From Bacteroidota bacterium (GTDB lineage Bacteria > Bacteroidota > Bacteroidia > JACPRZ01): 64,000 nt of DNA. The first letter of the stretch is position 1, and each line of letters starts with the position of its first letter. This document shows positions 2,226-58,288 of the stretch, in pieces. Both the position numbers and the translations under genes were made by a program. The stretch covers positions 128,156 to 192,155 of the forward strand of contig JACPRZ010000063.1 in NCBI GenBank assembly GCA_016193485.1, read 5' to 3'. The notes under the pieces were generated by a model. The model was not told the origin of the DNA. It made no database searches and was given only the letters and a program-made list of their open reading frames with translations.

Positions 2226-4480
2226 TCAGAAATCGAAACTTTCTCCTGCATCTTCGACTTTATCTTTTTTTGTATAATTCCAGCAATCGGTATCAATAGT
2301 TACAGGAACAGATGGCGGTTCAAAATCCTCCTTTGAAATATTTATTGTTTTGTCATCATAAACGCTTTTCATATAGTAAGCCCAAACCGGCAGGGCAAGC
2401 GTAGCGCCCTGCCCCCAAAACATACTACGGAAATGGACGCTACGATCCTCACAACCCACCCATACACCTGATACAAGATCAGGGGTAATACCAATAAACC
2501 ATCCGTCAGAATAATTCTGAGTTGTACCGGTTTTTCCGGCTACGGGGTTGCGAATATCGTATTTAAACCTAAGGCGCACTCCGGTACCGATTCTTTTATT
2601 GACTGATTTGGAATAGACCCCATCCACTACCCCTTTTAGCATTCTGAGCATCACCCATGCAGTTTCCTCGCTCATTGCTTCGCTGGTTTTTGGTGTAAAT
2701 TCTTCCAGGATATTTCCATGGTGGTCTTCTATCTTCAATAGATATGTGGGTTCAGTCCATATTCCCTTATTGGCATAAGTACTGAATGCACCGGTCATTT
2801 CATAAACAGAAATATCAGCCACGCCAAGGCATAAAGCAGGGTACGGATCAAGATGACTGGTTATACCCATCCTGCGCGACAGGTCAATTACGGCTTGTGG
2901 TCCGAATTTACTGATTACATAAGCCGTTATCGTATTGATGGAATTAGCAAGGGCGAATTCGATTGCCAGCATTTTCCCGTCAAACTCATCATCTGAATTT
3001 TTTGGAGACCATTTTTCACCTTTTTCATCAATGAAAATGACCGGTACGTTCGGGACTTCTTCACAGGGCGACCATTTTTCCTGTATGGCAAGGGTATAAA
3101 CAAAGGGTTTAAATGCCGAACCCACCTGCCTTTTACCCTGTTTTACGTGATCATACTGAAAGTGCTTGTAATTTACCCCCCCCACCCATGCTTTGATGTG
3201 ACCGGTGTGAGGGTCCATGGAAAGAAATCCTGCCTGAAGGAAGTGTTTATAATACCGGATTGAATCCATCGGGCTCATAAAAGTATCTTTTTCACCTTCC
3301 CATGTGAATATCGTAATCGTATCGGGGGTATTGAATATTTTCAGGACAGAGTCCCTTGAAATACCGGCTTCTTTAAGAAGAGCATAGCGTTCCGACCGGT
3401 TTACGGCTTGCATCAGGATTGTGTTTATTTCCTGCTGTGTAAGATTTCTGTCAAAGGGTGCGTTTTTTGCATCCTTCCAATGCTTAAAAAATTCTTTCTG
3501 AAGGTCTTTCATGTGCCGGGTTACTGCCTGTTCGGCATACCGCTGCATCCGCGTATCAATGGTAGTATAAATTTTTAAACCGTCTTTATACAAATTATAG
3601 GGCGTTTTATTGTCGGGCTTAAGATGATTGGAGCACCACTTATCCAATTCCAGCCGGATATGCTCCCTGAAATATGTAGCGAGTCCGGCAGTATGATCTT
3701 CGGGCCGGAATACAAGTTTTACAGGCAATATTGATAAGGAATCATATTCCTGTCGGGATAAAAAAGAATACCGTTTCATCTGGCTCAGAACAACATTTCG
3801 TCTTGCTTGCGCCCGCTCCGGGTGCTTTACCGGGTTAAACCAACTGGGTGCTTTCAGAATGCCTATCAGAAGCGCTGCCTGCTCGGGTCGCAACGAATCG
3901 GGGGTAGTGCTGAAAAATATTCTCGATGCCGATTTTATACCGTAGGCGTTATTGCCGAAAGGAACGGTGTTAAAATACATGGCGATTATCTCATCTTTCG
4001 TGTAATTGCGTTCCAGTTTTACGGCCGTAAGCCATTCCCGTATTTTTGTAGCAGCGATTTGAAGAGGGGAAGAAAATTTTTCCCTGGGGAAAAGATTTTT
4101 TGCCAGTTGCTGGGTAATGGTGCTTCCCCCCTAAAGAATACCCTGGTTAATCCCTTGAAGTCCACACCGGAATGGCCGGCAAAACGGATATCCTCCGTAG
4201 CAAGAAGCGCATGTACCAGCCGTGGCGATAACTCGGAAAAGTCAGTATTCGTGCGGTTCTGGTAATAGTATTTGCCGATTATGCGGTGATCGGAGGAATA
4301 AATTTCCGAAGCCAGCTGGCTCCGGGGATTTTCGAGTTCTTTAAAATCGGGCAGCGGCCCGAAATATTCAAGCGAAACAAGCCAGATAAATCCGGCCGCC
4401 AGCAATAAAAAAATTGTAAACAGAATCCAGAAACCTGCTATGAAGGGAACGTGAGAAGACCTGTGGGATGAGGGGGACAT
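2226..4480 (-). pseudogene. mrcA: Penicillin-binding protein 1A (transglycosylase/transpeptidase), interrupted by a single-base frameshift in a C6 run at 4126..4131. This may be a sequencing error.
   Basis: Two adjacent minus-strand ORFs (4019..4627 and 2226..3980) together encode the PBP1a N-terminal TM anchor, the EDIRFxxHxGxD transglycosylase motif and the transpeptidase domain. Reading the -1 frame across the C-run restores ...GLTRVFFRGGSTITQQLAKNLFPREKF...IIAMYFNTVPFGNN, the canonical GGSTITQQ glycosyltransferase motif joining both ORFs. The likely start is MSPSS at 4480. Confidence 0.8.
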
Positions 4481-4494
4481 TTTAAAAGATAAAA

Positions 4495-4606
4495 GGACAA
4501 AGATGCTGACGATTACTGTCAGCACCATGACCAAATGCGTTATGATGCAAGGACAAAGATACTGACGATTACCGTCAGCATTATGACCAAATGCGACATG
4601 ATATAC
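4495..4606. repeat. 2 x 56-bp tandem direct repeat, each unit carrying a CTGACGATTAC(T/C)GTCAG palindrome, with a third partial copy at 4607..4660
   Basis: aaggacaaagatgctgacgattactgtcagcaccatgaccaaatgcgttatgatgc is followed by aaggacaaagatactgacgattaccgtcagcattatgaccaaatgcgacatgatat. It lies directly upstream of the PBP1a start. Confidence 0.85.
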
Positions 4607-4702
4607 TGACGGAATTTGATTTTGCAAGTTTACAAAATCAAATTCGTCAGTATAAAAGTGAGATCGTAATAGAAAGAAAGGAATTTGTTCCGGGAACCCG
4701 GA

Positions 4703-9279: not shown

Positions 9280-10350
9280 TTAATTGACCTTCGCGGAATA
9301 AACTATCGCGTCCACCTGCCGCAGGTACTCCCGCTTATCATATTTTGGAGCGAAAACGAAACCTTCAATGCAGATAAGACGCTTCTTTTGCCGGTCCGAA
9401 AGAAATAGGGCAACAAACGGTCCCCCCATAAAATCGTTCTGAACCTGCCATAAGCCGCGTATTTCAAGTGCCGGAAAACGACCGTGATGTATTTCTGTTT
9501 TTACCAGTGGGAAATCCGACATCGTCATCATATAAGAACCGGCAGATGGACCCGGTACATTTATTTTACAAACCGAATCGCGTATGGATCGCAGGCGGTT
9601 ATCGCCAGTGAAAACAGAATCGGTATAGGGAACGGAATAAATTAAAATTCCCTGGATGGTTTCTTCCGTTTCCCGCTGCAGCCAGGTAAAATTATTTGTG
9701 TTACGCATTGATTTATATCCTTTCGGAACCGTAAGCGAAATTCCCTGCGTTGATGAGATTTCCTGCATTACGGTTTTATCTGCAAGTTTTGAATAATTGG
9801 CGATCATCCTGCTTCTTTCGGATTTGCGGAAGAAATCAGTGATCAGGGAACAATTGTTTTTAAGAAAGCGGTCCATATCCTGATTTCTGCTAAGCGTAAG
9901 TTCCATTGAGACCTGTTCTTTCGACCAGGCGCCATGCCGGCTTATAAATGAATCCTTGCCGGACGTATCGCTGGAACGGATAATAAAAACATTCCTGTGG
10001 GTCTTAAATATACCTTTAAAAGCAGGGGGGGGAATTTGCACCAGCGTAAACATTGGCTCCGGCTGCGGCAAGGCAGGATGTTCTGCAGCAAGACATAAAC
10101 GCAGAGCATTGCCCGGTTTTCCAGTCCAGCCGTTTTCCGGCATCACAATAATAATTTCACCCGTTTTACCTGTGCTGCCGGGTAAAGCAATCCTGTTGCC
10201 GGAATCATTGCAGGAGGCGAACAGCGTCAGGAGTAAAATGCACAGCGATATGAGAATTTTATTAAATCCTCTCTCCCCCTCCCCCCGATAGATATCGGGG
10301 CTATCGGGATCAAAGGGGGAACAAAACCGGTTTTCATCTTTTTGCTTCAT
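9280..10350 (-). CDS. DUF4837-like lipoprotein. Its N-terminal region contains a translated copy of the CCCCGATAGATATCGGGG palindrome.
   Basis: Lipoprotein-type signal (...ILISLCILLLTLFASC). The ATG at 10350 overlaps the ispG stop in an ATGA arrangement. Residues DPDSPDIYRGEGE are encoded by the palindromic element at 10283..10311. Confidence 0.5.
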   Translation of the reverse strand: MKQKDENRFCSPFDPDSPDIYRGEGERGFNKILISLCILLLTLFASCNDSGNRIALPGSTGKTGEIIIVMPENGWTGKPGNALRLCLAAEHPALPQPEPMFTLVQIPPPAFKGIFKTHRNVFIIRSSDTSGKDSFISRHGAWSKEQVSMELTLSRNQDMDRFLKNNCSLITDFFRKSERSRMIANYSKLADKTVMQEISSTQGISLTVPKGYKSMRNTNNFTWLQRETEETIQGILIYSVPYTDSVFTGDNRLRSIRDSVCKINVPGPSAGSYMMTMSDFPLVKTEIHHGRFPALEIRGLWQVQNDFMGGPFVALFLSDRQKKRLICIEGFVFAPKYDKREYLRQVDAIVYSAKVN

Positions 10351-12314: not shown

Positions 12315-12359
12315 CGGGACAGGTTACAATGCACAGGGAGAATACCTGATCTGAATTTG

Positions 12360-12432
12360 TGGGCCCACAGGGATTTGAACCCCGGACCAACGGATTATGA
12401 GTCCGCTGCTCTGACCGCTGAGCTATGGGCCC
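12360..12432 (-). tRNA. tRNA with CAT anticodon, elongator Met-type, or possibly Ile2 after lysidine modification
   Basis: Reverse complement GGGCCCATAGCTCAGCGGTCAGAGCAGCGGACTCATAATCCGTTGGTCCGGGGTTCAAATCCCTGTGGGCCC folds as a cloverleaf with a 7-bp acceptor stem, D, anticodon (loop CTCATAA) and T arms, and discriminator A. G1-C72 is paired and there is no GGG/CCC anticodon stem, so it is not an initiator tRNA. Confidence 0.85.
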
Positions 12433-12656
12433 GTTTCAAATATGGTAATTTATTTATATCTTTCTTTGAGTAAATCAGAAATATCAGGAAAAAGTTTCAG
12501 ATTCCTGATATATTTTGTGCTCTTCATGTTTTTAATGTGTTTTTCTATTGCCCTTGCCTGTAATATAGTACTGCACCTGATTATGAAATAAATATTCCAG
12601 TCGTTTACTAATGAAGTAAAATGTTTTGTTACTACTCAGCATCCCAGGAATTTCAT

Positions 12657-12729
12657 GCCACAAAATCACTAAAACACAAAATTTCACTAAATTTTTTTGT
12701 GTTTTTTGGTGCTTTTGTGACTTTGTGGC
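12657..12729. repeat. 73-bp imperfect palindrome (long hairpin)
   Basis: gccacaaaatcactaaaacacaaaatttcac...gtgttttttggtgcttttgtgactttgtggc has arms that are reverse complements with a few mismatches. Confidence 0.7.
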
Positions 12730-12854
12730 AGAAATTTTTATGTTTTCGGATACCCACCTGAATAGGTTTCAGTTGTGCTTCCCACATAATATTTGTTGAG
12801 GTGTTTGCTAAATAATATGTAACAATACGCCATTTATTCAAAACGTCTTTTAAT

Positions 12855-12950
12855 GAACCCCGGACCAACGGCCCCGATAGATATCGGGGGAGTCCGCTGC
12901 TATGACCGTCCCGATGGCCCCGATGGCTATCGGGGGGACTATGGGCCCCT
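12855..12950 (-). pseudogene. Decayed second copy of the tRNA(CAT) gene, 5' two-thirds, disrupted by two insertions of CCCCGAT..ATCGGGG palindromes
   Basis: tgaaccccggaccaacgg / gagtccgctgct / tgaccg / ctatgggccc blocks are collinear and identical to the intact tRNA at 12360..12432. They are interrupted at 12872..12889 (ccccgatagatatcgggg, replacing the anticodon-loop bases) and at 12911..12937 (tcccgatggccccgatggctatcgggggg). Confidence 0.7.
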
Positions 12951-17233: not shown

Positions 17234-17675
17234 ATCTCGCAAAGTCGCAAAGTCCGCAAAGTATGAGAACTGAAAATGAAATTTCAAAAATTTTAGTGAA
17301 TATCTTTCTCAAAGTTCACCGGACACCTGGACCTGGTTTGCTTGAATCTGTTTATGAAGCCGCTATATGCTATGAATTGGAAAAATTGGGAATTCCATTC
17401 AAAAGACAACAGGGCATTGAAGTGTACTATGACCATGTGAAAATGGAGTTGGGTTTCAGGGCAGATATTGTGGTTGATGGAAAAGTAATTGTAGAAATAA
17501 AATCTGTTGATACTCTTACGGATGTCCATTATAAAGTATTGCTGACTTATTTAAGATTAACTAATTTGAAATTAGGATTGCTTGTCAATTTTAATGTCAC
17601 TTTAATAAAGAATGGAATAACAAGAATCGTTAATAATCTGTAATTCTTCGCGTGCTTTGCGTCTTTGCGAGAGAA
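17234..17675 (+). mobile_element. MITE-like cassette consisting of the GxxExxY gene bounded by ~19-bp terminal inverted repeats built from CGCAAAG units
   Basis: Left end tctcgcaaagtcgcaaagtccgcaaag (17234..). Right end ctttgcgtctttgcgagag (17657..17675), whose reverse complement is ctctcgcaaagacgcaaag. A further copy, atttgcgagaca, lies at 17680. The cassette sits between fabF and rnc. Confidence 0.4.
17263..17643 (+). CDS. GxxExxY protein (PD-(D/E)xK nuclease-like)
   Basis: 126 aa with the GLLESVYEAAICYEL and DIVVDGKVIVEIKSV motifs that define the GxxExxY family. Confidence 0.8.
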   Translation: MRTENEISKILVNIFLKVHRTPGPGLLESVYEAAICYELEKLGIPFKRQQGIEVYYDHVKMELGFRADIVVDGKVIVEIKSVDTLTDVHYKVLLTYLRLTNLKLGLLVNFNVTLIKNGITRIVNNL

Positions 17676-24082: not shown

Positions 24083-24270
24083 AACGATTTTTGTTTTTTG
24101 ATATAATAAACAAGAGAAGGATTAAGCGCAAATTTAATAATATTGAACTAATGACAAATTGATGATAAAACCAATAAAATGCGAATATGCGAATTCCGAT
24201 GACTATCGGGACTCATGATACGAATCCTTTACCTGCAATAATTCACAACAAGATTCGTTAGTTTATCAGG

Positions 24271-48100: not shown

Positions 48101-49346
48101 TGCATTAACTCCTATGGCAATCGGTTACGAAATCGGTGGCGAAGCAAATGTTCCGCTTGCAAGAGCAATCATTGGCGGAGTGCTGATGGCGACATTGCTT
48201 TCACTTTTTGTAGTTCCAATTTTATTTTATCTGTTAAACAAAAAATCTCAAAACAAAATGAAACTCAATCAAACATTAATCCCGATAGCTATCGGGATTC
48301 CGCTCGTGATGCTGCTTGCTTCCTGCGGAAATAAAAGAGAAGAACAACAAACTAAAACTGCAAGCAGAAATGTTCCGACAGTTTTGGTTGGCAATCCGCA
48401 AACACATCAATTCAATTCTTCCTTGCAAATCAGCGGGACAGCAAAACCAAATCAGCAGGTAAAATTATTTGCAATGACAAGCGGAATGTTACGGGAAATA
48501 AATGTTGACATCGGAGATTTTGTAAAACAGGGAGAAACACTTGCCACGCTTGATAATCCCGAACTCATACAGCAGAAAGCAAAAGCCGAAGCCGATTTGA
48601 ACGGAAAGAAATCTATCTACGACAGATTAAAAAGCGTGTATGACAAAACTCCGCAACTCACCACTATTGCAGAAGTGGAAAAAGCACAGGCAGAATTTGA
48701 AAGTGCGAAAGCAATATTGAGCGGTTTGCAATCGCAAATAAATTTCCTGCAAATACAATCACCGTTTTCAGGAGTAATTGTCAATCGTTTTTTTGACAAA
48801 GGAGCAACCATTCAGAGCGGGTTAAATAATTCCAACGCAATGCCTCTTTTTGAAATTCAGGATTTACAACCGATAAGATTGACTATTGATATTCCCGAAA
48901 CAGACGCAGTTCTCATTGACAAAAATACAAAAACAGAAATTACATTTCCTGAATTGCCCAATGGAAAATACACGGCAGCAGTTTCACGCATTGCTTATGG
49001 ATTGGATGAAAACACAAAAACAATGAAGGTGGAAATTGATTTACCGAATACAGATTTAAAAATTCGTTCAGGAATGTATGCGAAAGTTGAAATAAAACGG
49101 AGCGGACATAAAGATGTCTTGTCCGTTCCGAATGAAGCAATCGGAAATGTGAAAGGGCAATCGTTTATCTATGTAGTGAATGATGGAAAAGTGAAAAAAA
49201 TAGAAGTAAAAGCAGGAATACGAGATGATAAATTTTCCGAATTGCTGAATGTAGAAATAAAATCCACCGACAAAATTGTAGTGCAGGGTAAAGAATTTTG
49301 TAGTGATGGAGCAACCGTTCAAACAAAAGAATTAATCACTAAATAA
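45114..49346 (+). CDS. RND efflux permease (AcrB/CzcA superfamily, ~1045 aa) fused in-frame to a periplasmic adaptor subunit (MFP/HlyD-like, ~360 aa)
   Basis: N-terminal KLPVDILPNYK...YPGMPAEVME and 12-TM RND architecture. Three codons after the RND C-terminus (...YLLNKKSQNK), the frame continues through MKLNQTLIPIAIGIPLVMLLASCGNK (a lipoprotein signal) into a lipoyl/beta-barrel adaptor, with no stop codon. Confidence 0.75.
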   Translation: MLELAFKNKYLIIVAALLVAVISIVSIQKLPVDILPNYKTSAVQVLTLYPGMPAEVMEKDITSRIERWTGQSNGIEHQESKSLIGVSIVKDFFREEIDPNTSLSQVTSLAMSDLYYLPPGTVPPMVMPFDPTATTPLALLAVSSDSLSEKELYDIAYFQLRNLLGSVQGIIAPAVYGGKLRRIYMYVYPDKLQAYNLSQIDVMEAVQKNNVMIPTGDVNIGNMNYSVNANGMLPKVEDFNNIVIKMGRDARLPDGQGSPIFLKDIGYAKDASAIQTNMVHINGKRQVYIPIYKRTGANTIASVEAVKNKLAELKERLPKAINLDVILDQSTYVRNSINGLLKEGTLGLILVSLALFLFLGNFRSTFIVALSIPLSVMFAFIGLFFTGDTINSMTLGGIALAIGLLVDDSIVVLENIDKHLKQGKTSAQAAFDGAKEVAMPVLVTTITICIVFFPIIFLTGISKYLFTPLAIVVSFAMIGSRIFSMTLVPIAAAAFFKGHSNENKPESLPAGRQGFLGMFDRGVTNLTNRYALMMDKVIKFRWVILISVALLFIISIFGFRKIGTELFPKMDVGQISIDVRMESGTRIEKSEKTITEIEKFLQKEIGNDLNIIISNMGVLNDWPAAYTSNSGTQDATIAVQLKEGYKIKTADYVKKLRPKLKEQFPGVQFIFNTGGIVTTALNFGLPSPIDIQITGNDLHKSHEIAVKVRDIVQNIKGTEDVRIHQRYDHPEIKVDIDRTKAAQLGINADDVVKNTVSALNSSVNFKPSFWIDEKNGNHYFVGVTYPEIELDNPQSVENISLTGTNGKTTFLKNIAKTSLSSAPIEINHLNIQRVTDVFANVEERDIGSVAKEIENKLETLKKDLPEGYKIEMRGEIKSMKDSFGNLGLGLILAVLMVYLVIVPLLRSFKLPLIIITVIPLGLIGVTGMLLATNTYLNIQSMMGIIMMVGITVAYSNLLVDKMNNLLKAGKNLEDAIKEGVANRFRPIIMTAIVAVLALTPMAIGYEIGGEANVPLARAIIGGVLMATLLSLFVVPILFYLLNKKSQNKMKLNQTLIPIAIGIPLVMLLASCGNKREEQQTKTASRNVPTVLVGNPQTHQFNSSLQISGTAKPNQQVKLFAMTSGMLREINVDIGDFVKQGETLATLDNPELIQQKAKAEADLNGKKSIYDRLKSVYDKTPQLTTIAEVEKAQAEFESAKAILSGLQSQINFLQIQSPFSGVIVNRFFDKGATIQSGLNNSNAMPLFEIQDLQPIRLTIDIPETDAVLIDKNTKTEITFPELPNGKYTAAVSRIAYGLDENTKTMKVEIDLPNTDLKIRSGMYAKVEIKRSGHKDVLSVPNEAIGNVKGQSFIYVVNDGKVKKIEVKAGIRDDKFSELLNVEIKSTDKIVVQGKEFCSDGATVQTKELITK
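48281..48296. repeat. Perfect 16-bp palindrome CCCGATAGCTATCGGG inside the adaptor signal-peptide coding region
   Basis: It encodes IPIAIGI. It belongs to the same motif family as 10283, 12872, 12918 and 54143. Confidence 0.8.
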
Positions 49347-49358
49347 AAGGAACAGAAA

Positions 49359-50684
49359 ATGAAAAATAATTTCAGAAAAATTGTTGCCTCAATTTTATTG
49401 GTGAGTGCAATGTTCACCGCAAATGCACAATCCCCCTCCCCTTCGGGGAGGGATGGGGTGGGGCTTGTAAATCTTGAAACGGTTTTAAAATTAGCAGGAG
49501 CGAATAATTTAACCATTCAGGAATACCAGTTGAAATACCAACATGCATTAGCCGAACAAAGCAAAGCCAAAGAATGGTATCTGCCGAATATTTATTTCGG
49601 TGCAAGCACGCATTATCTGAATGGCGCAGCAATGAATACCGATGGGCAAATATTTACTGATGTGAACAGAAACAATCTCTGGACAGGGTTGGGTATCGGA
49701 GCGGAAATAGATTTTAGTAAAGGATTTTATTCTTCGCTTGCTGCAAAACAAAAAGCCAAAGCAATGCAATATCAAAGCACGACAGAAAAAAATAAAATGA
49801 TTTTACAAACGGTGCAGACCTATTTTGATTTGCAGGTAGAACAATTAAAATATTTTTTCTTGCAGCAATTAGTTAATCAATCCAACACGATTTCACAGCA
49901 AATAAAAATAAAAGTGGACGCAGGATTGCTATATCAATCCGATTATCTGCTCTCGCAAAGCAATTATAATCATTTGAAAATTTCAATGCTCCAAACAAAA
50001 ATAGAATGGCAGAAGAAATCCGCTGAACTTGTCAATCTTCTGAATTTAGAAAACAATATTAGTTTGGTAAGTGGCGACACTACTTTAATTCCGCTAAAAC
50101 TCATTGAGCAAAAAAATGACACGGCAACTTATAAAAACGGTTTTGAAAAACGAGCGGAATATTTAGGATTAAGTTCCGAACTCCAATCTTTTCAAACACT
50201 TCGCAAGACAGCCAATCAGGGTTTGTTATTGCCAAAGTTGAGAGCGGGTTTTGACAATGGAGCGTTCGGTGCATACACCACACCGCTTTACAACACCTAT
50301 CAATTCAACGCTTCGCTTGTTTGGAATTTGCCATTGGGAAGATTTACTTATAAAGGCGATTTGAAAAAATACGACACGCAAATTCTCATTCAGCAAAACG
50401 AAATAGAACAATTTAAAAATCAATTCCAGCAGGAAATTTCTATTGCCAATTCTCAACTTCAAATTGCCCAAGAACAAATGACTATTGCGAAACATGCTTT
50501 GCAATCATCCACCGAAGCATTGAACCAAAGCATAGAAAGGCAAAAGTTAGGAACGGCAAAACCTTTTGAAGTTTTTCAGATACAACAGTTTTTCTTGCAG
50601 GCACAAACCGATTATGTGAAAACGGTGATTGATTATAACAAGGTGCAATATGCTTTATGGGTTGCACTGGGAAATATGTTATAA
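49359..50684 (+). CDS. TolC-family outer-membrane efflux protein
   Basis: 441 aa with a signal peptide and two tandem OEP repeats. Residues SPSPSGRDGVG just after the signal are encoded by the GC-rich hairpin at 49431..49463. Confidence 0.75.
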   Translation: MKNNFRKIVASILLVSAMFTANAQSPSPSGRDGVGLVNLETVLKLAGANNLTIQEYQLKYQHALAEQSKAKEWYLPNIYFGASTHYLNGAAMNTDGQIFTDVNRNNLWTGLGIGAEIDFSKGFYSSLAAKQKAKAMQYQSTTEKNKMILQTVQTYFDLQVEQLKYFFLQQLVNQSNTISQQIKIKVDAGLLYQSDYLLSQSNYNHLKISMLQTKIEWQKKSAELVNLLNLENNISLVSGDTTLIPLKLIEQKNDTATYKNGFEKRAEYLGLSSELQSFQTLRKTANQGLLLPKLRAGFDNGAFGAYTTPLYNTYQFNASLVWNLPLGRFTYKGDLKKYDTQILIQQNEIEQFKNQFQQEISIANSQLQIAQEQMTIAKHALQSSTEALNQSIERQKLGTAKPFEVFQIQQFFLQAQTDYVKTVIDYNKVQYALWVALGNML

Positions 50685-50689
50685 GTGTA

Positions 50690-50880
50690 TTTATCCGTTT
50701 CACTATTTCTCCTTTTCCCTTCTGTTTATACACGGTATTCATCTCTTTACGTCCTACTATTCTCCCCATATCTGTTTCCCAGTATATTATGCCGCCACTC
50801 ATACCCCCTGTTTCACGTGAAACATTCCCCCTTCAACCCCTTGTCACCCCGTCCCCTGTCCTTCCTATCTTTGCCCCACC
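50690..50880. repeat. ~190-bp polypyrimidine (C/T-rich, G-poor) tract containing the perfect palindrome GTTTCACGTGAAAC
   Basis: The plus strand is almost devoid of G. The palindrome lies at ~50803..50816, directly upstream of uvrC. Confidence 0.75.
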
Positions 50881-52668
50881 ATGCTCTCCCTGCTGAAAAT
50901 AACCCTTTCCAACCTTCCTGACGACCCGGGAGTTTACCGCTTTCTTGATTCCAGCGGGATAATCCTTTATATAGGTAAAGCAAAAAACCTAAAAAAACGG
51001 GTTCTCTCCTATTTTACCAAAACCCATACGAACGGAAAAATCGCCTTCATGGTAAAAAGGACTACAGATGTTCAATACATAATCGTCAACACCGAACAGG
51101 ATGCTTTGCTCCTGGAAAATACCCTGATAAAAAAACACAAGCCAAGGTATAATGTGGCGCTTAAAGATGATAAGACGTATCCGTGGATTTGTATAAAAAA
51201 AGAACCGTTTCCAAGGGTCTTTGTTACGCGCAGAATTATCAGGGACGGTTCTTTCTATGCCGGTCCATTTACCTCTCATAATATAATGTACGCCCTGCTG
51301 GACATGATAAATAAGGTTTTTAAGCCCAGAACCTGTAATTACAATCTTTCAGATGTTAATATCAGGGCAAATAAATTCAGGGTTTGTCTTGAATATCATA
51401 TCGGGAATTGTTTTGGACCCTGTGATGGCCACCAGGGAAAGAATGAGTATGATGGGAATATGGAAAGAATAAAAGAAATTTTGAAAGGCGATACCGGTTC
51501 CGCAAAAGATACCCTGAAGAAGCAGATGAATTTTTTTGCGGAACAATTGCGTTTTGAAGAGGCGGAGAAAGTAAAAAAGCAGATTGAGTGCATCGAAAAA
51601 CATCAGAGGAAATCAACCGTAGTCAACCCTCGGCTGACAAACCTGGATGTTATCTCAATCGTGACCGATGAAAAAACAGGATACGTGAATTATCTCCGCA
51701 TTCTGAATGGTACAATAATCCAATCGCACAACCTTGAAATTAAAAAGAAACTGGATGAAACACCCGGACAACTTCTTGAAATTACTTTGACTGAATGCCG
51801 GCAACTTTTTAAGAGCGAATCGGCCGAAGTAATAGTTCCTTTAATACCTGATTTTCAGCAAAATAATCTGATCTTCACACTTCCCGTCAGGGGTGATAAA
51901 AAGAAATTACTTCTGATGTCGGAACGCAATGCGCAGCATTTCCGCCTTCTGCAATTGAGAAAATCGGTTTCAGGCAACTTATCACCAATGGGTAAAAAAC
52001 TTGTTACCAGTGTAATGGCTGATTTGCACCTGCCGGCACTTCCATTGCACATTGAATGTTTTGATAATTCGAATATCCAGGGCGACTTCCCGGTCTCTGC
52101 ATGTGTGGTTTTTAAAAACGGAGTCCCCTCAAAAAAGGATTACCGGCTTTTCAACCTCAAAACAGTTTCAGGTCCTGATGATTTCAGTTCAATGTATGAG
52201 GTTGTTTACCGGAGGTATAAACGGCTGACCGAAGAAAAACAGCCGCTTCCGCAATTGGTTGTTATTGATGGCGGAAAGGGGCAATTGAATGCTGCGGCTG
52301 AAGCGCTGGAAAAACTTTCTATCGGATCCAAAATTAAAATTATTGCTCTTGCTAAACGGATGGAAGAAATTTTCCTTCACCGGAAACAGGAACCGCTGTT
52401 GATAAATAAAAATTCCGATACGCTGAAATTACTGCAGCATCTGCGCGATGAAGCTCACCGCTTCGGAATAAAACACCACCGGGGCAGGAGAATTCGTGAA
52501 ACCGTCCGGTCAGAATTGATGAATATTAAAGGAGTGGGGGAGAAGAGCGTGAAAATTTTATTGACAAAGTTCGGTTCGGTAGAACAAATCAGGAAATGTT
52601 CGGCAGATGATCTGATTCCCCTGTTAGGAAAAAGCAAAGCGGGGAAAATATCAGCGTTTTTCAGGTAG
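50881..52668 (+). CDS. uvrC: excinuclease ABC subunit C
   Basis: 595 aa. N-terminal GIY-YIG domain (PGVYRFLDSSGIILYIGKAKNLKKR), a UvrB-binding region, an RNase-H-like endonuclease domain and a C-terminal HhH domain. Confidence 0.9.
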   Translation: MLSLLKITLSNLPDDPGVYRFLDSSGIILYIGKAKNLKKRVLSYFTKTHTNGKIAFMVKRTTDVQYIIVNTEQDALLLENTLIKKHKPRYNVALKDDKTYPWICIKKEPFPRVFVTRRIIRDGSFYAGPFTSHNIMYALLDMINKVFKPRTCNYNLSDVNIRANKFRVCLEYHIGNCFGPCDGHQGKNEYDGNMERIKEILKGDTGSAKDTLKKQMNFFAEQLRFEEAEKVKKQIECIEKHQRKSTVVNPRLTNLDVISIVTDEKTGYVNYLRILNGTIIQSHNLEIKKKLDETPGQLLEITLTECRQLFKSESAEVIVPLIPDFQQNNLIFTLPVRGDKKKLLLMSERNAQHFRLLQLRKSVSGNLSPMGKKLVTSVMADLHLPALPLHIECFDNSNIQGDFPVSACVVFKNGVPSKKDYRLFNLKTVSGPDDFSSMYEVVYRRYKRLTEEKQPLPQLVVIDGGKGQLNAAAEALEKLSIGSKIKIIALAKRMEEIFLHRKQEPLLINKNSDTLKLLQHLRDEAHRFGIKHHRGRRIRETVRSELMNIKGVGEKSVKILLTKFGSVEQIRKCSADDLIPLLGKSKAGKISAFFR

Positions 52669-52756
52669 CGGGTGGTAGAATTTATTCCAGGTGATGCCCC
52701 AATCTTCCAACCTTCCACAATTCCATCTTTCCTTTTCTTTACGATAACCATCCCCG

Positions 52757-53143
52757 TTATCGCTCCACGCTCTTCTTCTCCAGCAGTTCATTTATCCTCT
52801 TCACCATCTCATATTTTTCCTGGAGGTCGGTAATTTGCTGCTGAAGGAATTTCACTTTTTGTTCGAGGGCGGTAATTTTCTGCTCGGCCGACAGGTATTG
52901 CTTTTTGCCGTATGAAGGAGTTGGTTCTGTAAACTGGGGTAGTTTCTGATCGCGGTAATAGCAGAAAAAATCAAACTCAAGCGCTTTTGAAATTTTGCGC
53001 AGGAGGTCAGTATCCAGGGACCTGCGTTTGAAAATACCATAAACATTCTGTTTAGAGGTATTGATACTCCTCGCAAGTTCAGTGGGGCCGATGCGCAATT
53101 CCCTGGCGCGTTCCCTGATTTTTTCACCGATATGGAGAGCCAT
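52757..53143 (-). CDS. XRE-family helix-turn-helix protein with a C-terminal coiled coil
   Basis: ELRIGPTELARSINTSKQNVYGIFKRRS HTH motif. The C-terminal heptad segment reads QKITALEQKVKFLQQQITDLQEKYEM. Confidence 0.6.
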   Translation of the reverse strand: MALHIGEKIRERARELRIGPTELARSINTSKQNVYGIFKRRSLDTDLLRKISKALEFDFFCYYRDQKLPQFTEPTPSYGKKQYLSAEQKITALEQKVKFLQQQITDLQEKYEMVKRINELLEKKSVER

Positions 53144-53385
53144 GGTACAAATATCTGCATACGGCAATACACAATCAAATGTACATATTACTATTTATTA
53201 TTTACAACAGTCATTATATTATTGCCTAATTGCCCTAAATATATTTACTTTGCAGGATTATTTACGAAATACGAACCGCATACGAATAAAGAATTTCTAA
53301 AATGTTCGGATTATTTTTCCCCGCATTTGGCGGGGCAGATAGACGCGGAAATATTTTAACTATTCTTCACTCTTGACAAGTCACC

Positions 53386-54099
53386 ATGAAAAAAGAACGG
53401 TTCACAAACAAACCGCAAAATAAATCCGGTGAACATTTCATTGACCTGGTCGCCCATGACATACGCGGAATAATTACAAAGATAGACCGCATAAGCGAAC
53501 TTTTATCCGGAAAACTTCAAACAACTGGCGACAGGGAAGTATCCCTCATGTTATCCTATCTGAAAACCCTGTGCCGGCAGGGAAATAATATCACAAATGA
53601 CCTGATAGTCAGTTGTGAACTTGAATCTGGCGCTGCTGTCATTGGCAATGAACAATCCATTCCGCTGAACAAAATTATTAAAGAGCAGGCAAAGATATAC
53701 CGGCTATTGGCGGTAGAAAAAAATATTCTCCTAAGCATATCCGTTCCGCGGAAAAATATTTATTGCAACATAGACGGGTGTAAATTCATTCGGATTATTG
53801 ATAACCTTTTTTCAAATGCGTTGAAATTTACTGGCCGGAACGGACATATAACAATTACTGTTTCTGCAAAGGGAACAAACCTTACTGTTGCAGTCGGTGA
53901 TTCCGGCATAGGGATACCGGCCGGACTTCAGCCGGAAATTTTCAATAAATATACAAAGGCAAGACGTTATGGTACCGAAAATGAAAGTTGTACCGGTCTC
54001 GGACTTTACATTGTGAAGAAAATTGTTGAAATGTATGGAGGGAAAATTTGGTTTGAAAGCAAAGAGAATAAGGGGACGACATTTTATGTGGTGATATAA
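53386..54099 (+). CDS. soluble sensor histidine kinase (HisKA + HATPase_c, no TM segments)
   Basis: H-box LVAHDIRGIIT, an N-box (DNLFSNALKF) and G-boxes (GDSGIGIP, GLGLYIVKKIVEMYGG). Confidence 0.8.
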   Translation: MKKERFTNKPQNKSGEHFIDLVAHDIRGIITKIDRISELLSGKLQTTGDREVSLMLSYLKTLCRQGNNITNDLIVSCELESGAAVIGNEQSIPLNKIIKEQAKIYRLLAVEKNILLSISVPRKNIYCNIDGCKFIRIIDNLFSNALKFTGRNGHITITVSAKGTNLTVAVGDSGIGIPAGLQPEIFNKYTKARRYGTENESCTGLGLYIVKKIVEMYGGKIWFESKENKGTTFYVVI

Positions 54100-54142
54100 G
54101 AAGGAAATTGGAAAGAAAAGAGAAAAATAATAGGAATTCAGT

Positions 54143-54159
54143 CCCGATAATTATCGGAA
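54143..54159. repeat. Palindrome TCCCGATAATTATCGGA, another copy of the dispersed CCGATA..TATCGG motif
   Basis: Near-perfect 17-bp inverted repeat in an intergenic region. Confidence 0.75.
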
Positions 54160-54406
54160 TTCAATTGGCATTAACAGGCATTGATTGTAAACGCAAATAG
54201 ACGCATAAACAGTGGCATATGCTGTTTTTTAGGGCACTTTTAAAAACATAATTGTTCATTTTGAAAAATATATTACCAGAACACAAAAAACATTCATCAT
54301 TCCCGGTGATAAACGCTCTCAAATGGATTCCCCTTTGAAGTATTATTCCCTTTTTGGCCGGATTATACCGGAGATTCAGTGAATAGAAGAGAACCCGATT
54401 CTGTTT

Positions 54407-54646
54407 CTACACGGTAAGACCGCAATGTTTGCAAAATTTCGCATCTTCCTTAATAATTTCGGCACAGTGGGGGCATTTTTTTGTATATCCCCTCGATACC
54501 ATCGGTGGAAGCAGAATTATAGCAATAATAACCAACGGAACCATGGCACATAATATAAACCACAATACAGGGCTACGCCCTTTTTGCTTCGCTAATATGC
54601 TACCTACAATTCCAGCAATTAAGATCAGAATAATGTACCTGATCAT
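54407..54646 (-). CDS. small membrane protein with a C-terminal zinc ribbon
   Basis: 79 aa with two predicted TM helices followed by CPHC...CKHC. Confidence 0.5.
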   Translation of the reverse strand: MIRYIILILIAGIVGSILAKQKGRSPVLWFILCAMVPLVIIAIILLPPMVSRGYTKKCPHCAEIIKEDAKFCKHCGLTV

Positions 54647-54716
54647 TGAAGTACTTTATTGCAATTTTTGTTACTATTCACCCCAAATTACAAATTATTA
54701 TTGGTCATTGCAATTT

Positions 54717-54804
54717 AACTCTGTGTAACTCAGTGTACTCTGTGCTCTCTGTGTTGAAGAATTTTTAACACAGAGTTCACTGAGATAACAGAGTTTCACA
54801 GAGG
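54717..54804. repeat. ~88-bp imperfect inverted repeat (long hairpin) downstream of the prohibitin gene
   Basis: aactctgtgtaactcagtgtactctgtgctctctgtgtt / gaagaattttt / aacacagagttcactgagataacagagtttcacagagg. Confidence 0.7.
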
Positions 54805-54825
54805 AGGTGAATAGTAACCAATTTT

Positions 54826-55671
54826 TTATTTTTTCTCCAGACCGCCAACGCCAATAAACGGCACAGCGCCATTCCCCGTTACCTGCGGGAGGATTCCGTT
54901 CCATTTCTCTATTGCCTTGAGATTCGCCTCAATTTTTCTCAATTCAATAAGGTCAGGTGAAATATTCATTTTCTGCAACCGCAACGCCTCTGCCTGTGCC
55001 GTTGCCTGTGCAATCGTCTGCTCCGCCTCAATTTTTATCCTTTCCAGGTCCCTTTTTGCCTTTAGTGCATGCTGTTCTGCCGTCTGCTTGGCTTCAATAG
55101 CATCCATAAATACCTTTGAGAAATTGAAATTGACAATTGAAAACGCATCCACGGCTATATTAGATTCCAGTAGCCGCGATGTAAGCGCTTCTTTTATTTC
55201 TGCGCTTACCGCTGGTCTCTTGGCTATAAGTTCTTCTGCAGAATACTTGGCTGACACCGCCTTCATTACCTCCTGTATGGCAGGATCAATAATGCGCTCC
55301 CTGAATTCCACACCGATGGTTTGATAGACAACATTTGCCTTATCAGGTATGATATGGTAATTAAGTGCAACCTTTAAAGCCACATCCTGCATGTCAGACG
55401 ATGCCGATGCGGCATCCGTCTCTGCCTTCTGAATCTTCACATCCATTATGACAACCTCCTGCATTATAGGAACTCTGAAATGCATTCCTTCATTCAATAC
55501 CTTATCCTGAACAGCGCCAAAATTGAGGACAATTCCTCTTTCACCCGCGCCAATCTGAACCCATGGCTTGAAAAGAAGTAAAGCCACCAGGATCGACCCG
55601 ATTATGAGTAAGTTCCTCCATGGGCCGCTTTTCATAGCCGACCGTAATGAATCCATATCCTGATTTGCCAT
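54826..55671 (-). CDS. SPFH/band-7 (prohibitin-like) membrane protein
   Basis: N-terminal TM segment, an SPFH domain and a coiled-coil C-terminus (AEQHALKAKRDLERIKIEAEQTIAQA). Confidence 0.85.
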   Translation of the reverse strand: MANQDMDSLRSAMKSGPWRNLLIIGSILVALLLFKPWVQIGAGERGIVLNFGAVQDKVLNEGMHFRVPIMQEVVIMDVKIQKAETDAASASSDMQDVALKVALNYHIIPDKANVVYQTIGVEFRERIIDPAIQEVMKAVSAKYSAEELIAKRPAVSAEIKEALTSRLLESNIAVDAFSIVNFNFSKVFMDAIEAKQTAEQHALKAKRDLERIKIEAEQTIAQATAQAEALRLQKMNISPDLIELRKIEANLKAIEKWNGILPQVTGNGAVPFIGVGGLEKK

Positions 55672-58119: not shown

Positions 58120-58288
58120 AAAGGATAGGCAATAAAATGTATTTCAACAAATCCGAAACAAATTCAATTCAGGAAATTTTAATAATTCAAAAATTTGTTT
58201 TTATTTTTGGATTTTGAATTTGAAATTGTTTCGAATTTCGCCTGCCTGACGGACAGGCAGGGGTTTTGAGATTCGGATTTTAATACTA

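Follow-up and report, generated by a model that had tools for sequence, protein, structure and literature searches.

The stretch of DNA considered here, 64,000 nucleotides of a Bacteroidota contig (JACPRZ010000063.1; "the window" always denotes this whole stretch), raises the question of what a short hairpin palindrome is doing at several scattered sites, among them the signal-peptide regions of two protein genes, and how it came to be there. We use PAL as a working name for this family of 18-base hairpin palindromes. The comparisons described below show PAL to be a real, phylum-wide, inserted palindrome of 18-20 bp, and the copies in the window are probably members of a family of miniature palindromic insertion sequences that is found throughout the Bacteroidota.

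When the window was scanned for CCGAT-N{2,6}-ATCGG, a pattern picked after its sequence had been inspected, six matches were found; 100 dinucleotide-preserving shuffles averaged 0.35 matches and had 2 at most, and none of them (0/100) reached six. All six matches (6/6) have a spacing of exactly 4 (CCGAT-N4-ATCGG), and no enrichment of other spacings or of other arrangements of the two arms was observed in the window. The family is certainly real, because the same 16-mer recurs independently across Bacteroidota genomes. A scan of the window allowing up to 3 mismatches to CCCGATAGCTATCGGG gave seven copies (at 10284, 12873, 12919, 24195, 45023, 48281, and 54143), to which two abutting half copies (10301-10309; 12910-12917) have to be added. 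The preliminary description of this stretch had spoken of eight or more loci, which is slightly generous for seven full and two half copies; the repeated palindrome itself, all the coordinates given for it and both of the in-frame translations reported hold good.

The two translated copies are numbers 1 and 6. Copy 1 (10283..10300; CCCCGATAGATATCGGGG) lies in the n-region of the signal peptide of a DUF4837 lipoprotein, the start codon of which shares bases with the ispG stop codon (ATGA), and reads DPDSPDIYRGEGE in that frame. It is abutted by the half copy CTATCGGGA (10301..10309), giving a "1.5-copy" form that was also encountered in loci L017, L066, and L131, and it is enclosed by an outer G/C hairpin (10274..10320) with TCCCCCT (10274-10280) and AGGGGGA (10314-10320) as its arms. 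Copy 6 (48280..48297; TCCCGATAGCTATCGGGA) matches the consensus exactly, is perfectly palindromic over as much as 22 bp (48278-48299), and translates as IPIAIGI in the lipoprotein signal peptide of an RND adaptor. Copies 2 and 3 stand in the remnant of a tRNA-Met gene, where copy 2 (12872..12889), an 18-mer identical to copy 1, occupies the anticodon loop in place of ATAAT, and copy 3 (12918..12935; CCCCGATGGCTATCGGGG), preceded by a duplicated left half (12910..12917; CCCGATGG), occupies the D-loop. The remaining three are intergenic: copy 4 (24195..24210; TCCGATGACTATCGGG) between divergent genes, the degenerate copy 5 (45022..45039; TCCCGACAGTTATCGGGA), which is enclosed by an outer stem TCCCG...CGGGA, between an unannotated open reading frame (ORF) and the RND pump gene, and copy 7 (54143..54158; CCCGATAATTATCGGA) 44 nt downstream of a histidine-kinase-like ORF. 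The surroundings are those of a Bacteroidota-like housekeeping region of ~43% G+C, with ispG, DUF4837, RecJ, FabF, RNase III, pyruvate kinase, EF-G, a Nuo-like complex, the RND pump, UvrC, and AspRS among the genes.

The palindrome had been thought to be specific to this genome, a view that the wider search contradicts. In 185,579 species genomes, one per species, the exact 16-mer CCCGATAGCTATCGGG occurs at no fewer than 120 loci (at least 120), and among the matches listed 118 of 120 are named as Bacteroidota (Bacteroidales, Flavobacteriales, Chitinophagales, Cytophagales, Sphingobacteriales, Saprospiraceae), one is unnamed and one (L206) is binned as Variovorax. The L206 contig is probably mis-binned, because the GIY-YIG protein that it encodes is 87% identical to a Flavobacteriales protein. 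The consensus can be written as R-TCCCGATAGCTATCGGGA-Y, in which two 7-bp arms, CCCGATA and TATCGGG, enclose a dinucleotide that varies; a T...A flank, present in 107 of 135 copies, makes this an 18-bp palindrome, and at position -2 of the same 135 copies A or G is found and T is depleted to 5%. Across 299 copies and variants the arms CCCGATA/TATCGGG are almost invariant, and changes fall on the central dinucleotide and on the outermost pair, which usually stays complementary. The window copies are more degenerate than this phylum consensus, so that the recent insertion suggested for them in the preliminary description is not borne out. We also considered whether PAL might represent the joined ends of an insertion sequence (IS), and rejected this: solo half-sites are near expectation (107 and 134 vs. 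85) and bracket no IS-sized segments.

In viral contigs the overall number of matches is about that expected by chance, whereas some of these contigs are dense in PAL, one 23-kb phage-like contig having at least six copies. In L069 (phage-like contig IMGVR_UViG_3300009870_000707, also represented by L066/L073) one PAL is present in each intergenic gap examined, within AT-rich heptamer repeats and long inverted repeats; PAL inside heptamer arrays was likewise found in L017 and L004. In phage-like contigs (L069/L066/L073; L017, L071) the AT-rich tandem heptamers GATAATT and AATTGAG build up long inverted repeats whose tip is PAL, and L069 has a nested 2.5-copy PAL at 2645-2700. No annotated phage relatives of the PAL-rich viral contig were found.

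That the palindromes are dispersed insertions, as had been proposed, is supported by several comparisons. In 15 orthologues of the DUF4837 protein (35-42% identity) only 3-5 residues separate the initiator Met from the hydrophobic core, whereas the n-region of the window protein comprises 30 residues, i.e., ~26 more, with PAL among the extra ones; the orthologues lack the segment corresponding to copy 1. The DNA of the extra block is the G/C hairpin TCCCCCT...AGGGGGA with PAL as its loop, and to judge from the alignment the whole nested block (outer hairpin, copy 1, and half copy) accounts for the ~26 extra residues. Copy 6 is exactly 18 nt (6 codons) long, and its excision in silico leaves MKLNQTLIPLVMLLASC, a textbook lipoprotein signal peptide.

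The tRNA genes provide the largest body of evidence, since their remnants carry their own control, the parental sequence being only a few hundred bases away. About 20 before/after pairs of a tRNA remnant and the parental tRNA in the same locus were gathered from the window and other loci. PAL replaces the D-loop bases GTT, AGT, or AAC in L155, L220, L224, L197, L131, and L074, the anticodon-loop bases ATAAT in the window, L206, L219, and L222, the T-loop bases GACTC or GTT in L179 and L227, and AATA on the 3' side of the D-stem in L221. Each pair has an 18-nt block in place of 3-5 nt, without target-site duplication. PAL-bearing remnants derive from tRNAs for Met, Asn, Arg, Ser, Val, Ala, Gly, Pro, and Thr, and with at least nine tRNA species affected the insertion events must, therefore, have been independent.

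In the window itself, the intact tRNA-Met (CAT) gene (12359..12432, - strand) is the parent of the remnant, a 96-nt partial duplicate (12855..12950, - strand) that comprises the displaced 5' part of the gene from the acceptor strand to the T-loop, where it ends. An alignment of the two reveals hardly any change in the acceptor, D-stem, anticodon-stem, and T-stem segments, while both loops between them have been exchanged: ATAAT of the anticodon loop for the 18-nt copy 2, and CTCAG of the D-loop for a 30-nt block made up of the nested PAL (12910..12935), positions 12936-12938 and base 12909. Between remnant and intact gene stands a decayed ORF for a GIY-YIG nuclease (12450..12833, - strand; N-terminus MAYCYILFSKHLNKYYVGSTTE..., C-terminus ...IEKHIKNMKSTKYIRNLK...), the whole arrangement covering 12433-12950 (- strand). 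The position of copies 2 and 3, within a pseudo-copy of tRNA-Met and next to such a pseudogene, had escaped the preliminary description. The pseudogene matches the GIY-YIG ORF of L206 (tblastn, E=4e-13), which in turn matches PF01541 at E=2e-10. It is interrupted by a long near-perfect hairpin of ~110 nt (12637-12745; -36 kcal/mol as RNA), which may be a separate insertion resembling a miniature inverted-repeat transposable element (MITE). In a search of Rfam at gathering thresholds tRNA alone passes; at permissive E-values copies 1-3 return tRNA, plastid families over the tRNA, and spurious matches of microRNA precursors to the 12637-12745 hairpin.

The combination found in the window is not an isolated case. 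Four GIY-YIG ORFs are present in the window and the loci selected for PAL, three of them 34-45 nt from a PAL copy and the fourth 234 nt away. An independent sample was obtained by a protein search for homologues of a 93-aa GIY-YIG protein, without regard to PAL, followed by inspection of the contigs. In all ten loci selected in this way the GIY-YIG gene adjoins a tRNA gene (Met, Asn, or Arg) or lies within it, and in all ten the adjoining tRNA fragment has PAL, or a variant with 1-2 mismatches, in a loop. Together with these ten, tRNA fragments flank the GIY-YIG ORF in the window, L155, L206, and L136. Two architectures occur: a 5' remnant with PAL, followed by the GIY-YIG gene and the intact tRNA, or a 5' remnant with PAL, followed by the intact tRNA, a terminator, the GIY-YIG gene and a 3' remnant with PAL. 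In every homology-selected case the distance from PAL to the end of the tRNA homology is one stem strand (7-11 nt), which places the cassette boundary at the base of the PAL-looped stem. The encoded protein, chromosomal in Bacteroidota, consists of ~95 aa and is little more than a catalytic domain; it shows weak similarity to UPF0213 BH0048 (PDB 1zg2, E=0.27) and matches no NCBIfam equivalog. The element at 12433-12950 looks like a selfish cassette aimed at tRNA genes.

Some further features of these loci may be added. The cassette of tRNA remnant, GIY-YIG gene and intact tRNA recurs in Bacteroidota with tRNA-Met, Asn, Arg, Pro, and Thr. In L222 a 3' fragment of tRNA-Met beside an integrase gene keeps its normal anticodon loop, a single case which suggests that not every tRNA fragment acquires PAL. 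The remnants of L136 and L074 also contain other hairpin families, e.g., CCTGCC...GGCAGG, and their loops are occupied by a family with the ends CCTGCCTG...CAGGCAGG. Contigs L220, L221, L224, and L226 end a few dozen bases from the GIY-YIG/tRNA/PAL junction and contig L001 ends inside the tRNA-Met of the window; repeats of this kind probably break short-read assemblies.

As to where PAL is found in general, long open frames contain only 15 of 135 copies, compared to 67% of random positions, a six-fold depletion. Nevertheless, the in-frame location is a recurrent property of the family and the supposition that host proteins tolerate it finds support elsewhere in the phylum: in-frame copies were encountered in AroA-like, L-serine dehydratase-like (SdaA), and GlnRS-like (GlnS) enzymes, a receiver domain, an E2 linker, type IX secretion tails, and the lipoprotein signal peptide of L130. 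They always read PIAIG or PDSYR, which are the two open frames of the palindrome on either strand, the third containing TAG. With a length of 18 nt, or exactly six codons, and a stop in only one of its three frames, PAL can survive as a coding insertion in signal peptides, linkers, and surface loops.

The surroundings of PAL reveal a further bias. Flanks pairing at -10 kcal/mol or below occur in 24% of copies vs. 9% of mismatched-flank controls, and perfect extensions of at least 7 bp in 6 copies vs. ~0.01 expected. The preferred stem-loop targets are the arms of tRNA gene fragments, terminator hairpins, as in L163, L185, and L205 where PAL caps terminator-like stems followed by T-runs, other palindromic repeats (GTCATTGCGAG...), and earlier copies of PAL, which gives rise to the 1.5- and 2.5-copy forms. 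That PAL always caps a larger hairpin does not hold as a rule: outside the T/A pair, direct extension is no more frequent than chance predicts, and strongly pairing flanks are confined to a minority of copies (~15% excess). PAL replaces a few target bases, prefers the loops of stem-loops without requiring them, is mostly intergenic, and is tolerated in frame. Its neighbors elsewhere are diverse, 155 Pfam families being represented among 150 ORFs beside 75-odd copies; only ordinary families recur and no transposase or common neighbor gene does so among these 150 ORFs.

How PAL is spread can be addressed on this basis. Having no coding capacity, PAL must be placed by a trans-acting factor, and the phylum-wide conservation of the arms in their sequence, not merely in their pairing, points to recognition by a conserved protein. 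We infer, therefore, that PAL is or was mobile and was placed by a trans-acting protein recognizing its arms. The small GIY-YIG nuclease is the best candidate for this protein, although the identification is tentative and may well be wrong; it is equally doubtful, but conceivable by analogy, that PAL and this nuclease form a partnership like that of repetitive extragenic palindromic (REP) sequences and the REP-associated tyrosine transposase (RAYT), with another enzyme and another logic. In such a scheme PAL would replace the loop of a short stem-loop and thereby turn a tRNA arm of 4-5 bp into a palindrome of at least 12 bp that might extrude to form a hairpin or a cruciform. The GIY-YIG protein, similar to the UPF0213/SLX1 group, would recognize the arms or the structure of PAL and cut at the base of the stem, and the nuclease gene together with a replacement tRNA segment would then be copied into the break by homology-directed repair. 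A cut at this position would explain why exactly one stem strand (7-11 nt) lies between PAL and the cassette. The same activity, exerted in trans on other hairpins, could scatter PAL over the genome and into phages. The reverse order would fit equally well: PAL might be added after insertion of the cassette, and might serve to destroy the target site or to break up direct repeats that would otherwise delete the cassette.

A number of observations weigh against the account of PAL as a family of insertion sequences and against the role proposed for the nuclease. GIY-YIG enzymes hydrolyze DNA without rejoining it and cannot insert DNA alone, and the mechanism, therefore, needs host repair. Only 2 of the 150 PAL-neighbor ORFs are of the GIY-YIG type and most copies adjoin ordinary housekeeping genes, and a nuclease could be responsible only by acting in trans; conversely, L101, L131, L179, and L197 have PAL-bearing tRNA remnants without a nearby GIY-YIG ORF. 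No transposase of any kind, including Y1/RAYT, was detected among the ~55 ORFs of the window. For approximately 75% of the copies there is no larger hairpin of which they form the tip, and this is why loop targeting is described here as a preference and not as a rule. Finally, no presence/absence polymorphism among close strains was seen, and the collections contain no close relative of the source organism: a contig scan with the DUF4837 protein recovered none, in another search the next match below 100% identity is at 45%, and the sole near-identical sequences to the window are three short Logan contigs with a 100% match.

Among other explanations, the one that deserves most attention holds that PAL is a cis-acting site for a conserved DNA- or RNA-binding protein of the Bacteroidota, such as a nucleoid protein, a processing enzyme, or a regulator, and that it spread by selection for this function and not by selfish mobility. 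Arms of 7 bp conserved throughout the phylum, with a center and an outermost pair that vary, are typical of the site of a dimeric protein, and the strong intergenic bias and the presence of PAL in every intergenic gap examined of one phage-like contig would also fit. It is much harder to see why such a site should lie in housekeeping enzymes, in signal peptides, in the loops of dead tRNAs, and nested in copies of itself, or why its neighbors (155 Pfam families among 150 ORFs) should have no common function, and the copies are insertions relative to the parental sequence. We consider this explanation, taken alone, rather unlikely. A protein-binding site, as proposed in the preliminary description, is still plausible as a property of PAL, given arms that are conserved beyond pairing; a classical operator is unfit to account for copies in ORFs and tRNA-fragment loops. 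A PAL-binding protein may itself move PAL, so that the binding-site explanation overlaps with insertion by a trans-acting protein, under which binding is both plausible and expected.

The proposal that PAL is a REP or REPIN element moved by a RAYT, i.e., a Y1 HUH transposase, encoded elsewhere in the genome had been made for this stretch before. PAL is indeed short, palindromic, mostly extragenic, and high in copy number, and REPs also occur occasionally in ORFs (PMC3733652), but it is perfectly symmetric without a GTAG or CGTC tag, occurs mostly as single copies and not as inverted doublets, and the nuclease gene that it flanks is of the GIY-YIG type and not a RAYT. No Y1_Tnp match was obtained among the ~55 window ORFs, and none is recurrent among the 150 PAL-neighbor ORFs. 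Taken as a whole, this proposal is very improbable. A shade less probable still is that the copies are locally selected terminators or RNA-stabilizing stem-loops that are alike by convergence. The hairpin is stable as RNA (about -9 to -11 kcal/mol), the hairpins capped in L163, L185, and L205 precede T-runs, and copy 7 lies just past a stop codon; however, convergence could not have given a whole phylum the same 16-18-mer, T-tracts are missing from the window copies, and terminating copies inside ORFs would be harmful. A terminator scan of 44000-55000, which spans copies 5-7, gave 14 terminator-like sites vs. 11.0 +/- 3.3 expected and called neither copy 5 nor copy 7. Least likely, with a probability close to nil, is an artefact, by chance or through base composition, of a post-hoc pattern: the pattern was certainly defined after inspection of the sequence, but six matches where 0.35 were expected, a number reached in 0/100 shuffles, the enrichment of one spacing and the same 16-mer across the Bacteroidota refute it.

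The window contains other hairpin repeats and genes that merit mention. Two composite repeats of ~87 nt (~79% identical; 42459-42545 and 42963-43080), with the ends AACACACCCC...GGGGTGTGTT and internal hairpins CCCCTCT...AGAGGGG, flank an ORF for a DUF559 (Vsr-like) endonuclease (42593-43024), the second small nuclease gene in the window that is bracketed by hairpin repeats; composites of the AACACACCCC type contain PAL in L059, L029, and L089. A third small stand-alone nuclease gene in the 64 kb, after those for GIY-YIG and DUF559, is a PD-(D/E)XK nuclease (PDDEXK_3) ORF at 17263-17643, between fabF and the RNase III gene. The palindrome CCCTCCCCTTCGGGGAGGG (49434-49452) lies in frame past the predicted signal-peptide cleavage site of an outer-membrane efflux protein, where it reads SPSPSGRDG, and looks like a tolerated coding insertion of a different G/C hairpin family. 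A third hairpin family, the above-mentioned CCTGCCTG...CAGGCAGG, is represented at 46633-46653 and 58241-58261, one copy being in frame in the AcrB-like pump (LPAGRQG) and the other intergenic, between the TonB-dependent receptor and SprB-repeat genes. The AcrB-type pump and HlyD-type adaptor (45114-49346) form one uninterrupted frame of 1410 codons, with no stop ahead of the adaptor's own ATG and lipoprotein signal peptide, and could be a fused pump-adaptor or two genes lacking an intervening stop. The gene for a class A penicillin-binding protein (2226-4627, - strand) appears split in two frames, the N-terminal transglycosylase part being in ORF 4019-4627 and the rest with the transpeptidase domain in ORF 2226-3980. 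A 56-nt tandem duplication (86% identical) at 4488-4599 in this gene could be behind the frameshift; the split gene is either a pseudogene or an assembly error.

If PAL is mobile, its 18 bp would place it among the smallest insertion elements known, conserved across a whole phylum, and would raise the question of how so little sequence is recognized and copied. There are also practical consequences. PAL probably breaks assemblies, several of the contigs studied here ending at such loci. Annotated proteins of Bacteroidota acquire spurious peptide motifs (PIAIG, PDSYR) and longer signal peptides through it, and gene finders miss the tRNA-like fragments to which it gives rise. The minimal GIY-YIG nuclease paired with PAL at tRNA genes offers a concrete and testable candidate enzyme, possibly of a new class of selfish cassettes that target tRNA genes, in a phylum that is important in gut, soil, and marine ecosystems.

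PAL belongs to none of the known families that could be tested here. In its workings it comes closest to the very small dispersed repeats (SDRs) of cyanobacteria, to REPs, to the palindromic elements of Rickettsia, and to the mitochondrial GC clusters. In 8 million full texts, which leave much subscription literature outside their scope, neither the PAL sequence, its halves or its encoded peptides nor a link between GIY-YIG genes and tRNA genes of this kind was encountered. REP superfamilies consist of an imperfect palindrome with a GTAG or CGTC tetranucleotide tag at one end, and are occasionally inserted in ORFs (PMC3733652). With REP/REPIN-RAYT systems (PMC3116915; PMC3733652) PAL shares short palindromes that are mostly extragenic, high in copy number and occasionally present in ORFs, as well as a nuclease gene flanked by copies of the repeat. 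It differs in its symmetric consensus without a one-sided GTAG/CGTC tag, in multiples that are nested or of the 1.5-copy form and not spaced inverted pairs, in the identity of the flanked nuclease, a GIY-YIG protein of ~95 aa, and in the replacement of a few target bases. It also differs from MITEs, as it replaces 3-5 nt without target-site duplication and its half-sites bracket no IS-sized segment. The Rickettsia palindromic elements, cited in PMC3733652, are in-frame repeats of ~100-150 bp in protein genes, confined to Rickettsia. Like these, PAL can lie in frame inside functional genes and be tolerated as an extra peptide, but it has 18 bp, i.e., exactly 6 codons, and spans the phylum Bacteroidota.

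The SDRs of Nostoc, reportedly described by Elhai et al. 2008 (Genome Res 18:1484), are noncoding dispersed hairpin repeats of ~20-27 nt that are presumed to be mobile and are found nested in other repeats and in tandem heptamer repeats. Tiny noncoding hairpin repeats, nesting and a setting in heptamer arrays are shared with PAL, whereas PAL differs in phylum and sequence, is shorter with its 18-20 bp, is perfectly symmetric, and is conserved in a whole phylum and not in one family only. SDRs are not known to be associated with tRNA fragments and GIY-YIG genes. The SDRs of Nostoc and related cyanobacteria are cited in PMC5861425, PMC3116915, and PMC2884548.

A parallel to the nuclease is offered by SegB of phage T4, a free-standing GIY-YIG homing endonuclease in a tRNA gene cluster (PMC2330249; PMC13096335). 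Systems of the SegB type likewise have a GIY-YIG ORF among or within tRNA genes and flanking tRNA sequence that is duplicated or co-converted, and the element at 12450-12950 has two traits of such a cassette, an ORF with a GIY-YIG domain and a duplicated tRNA target at its junctions. In contrast, the Bacteroidota protein is approximately a catalytic domain only, with cleavage as its predicted activity, it is chromosomal, and a specific palindrome occupies the loops of the displaced tRNA. In yeast and other fungal mitochondria, GC clusters and the double-hairpin elements (DHEs) of Allomyces are small GC-rich hairpins in intergenic DNA, RNA genes, and coding regions. Fungal mitochondrial hairpins of this kind border insertions of mobile endonuclease ORFs that carry a replacement part of the target gene. 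The Allomyces DHEs are reportedly those of Paquin et al. 2000. Such elements are organellar, 26-79 bp long and unrelated to PAL in sequence, so that the parallel is one of architecture only. The part of the present findings that is most likely to be truly new is the link of PAL with GIY-YIG genes and tRNA genes.

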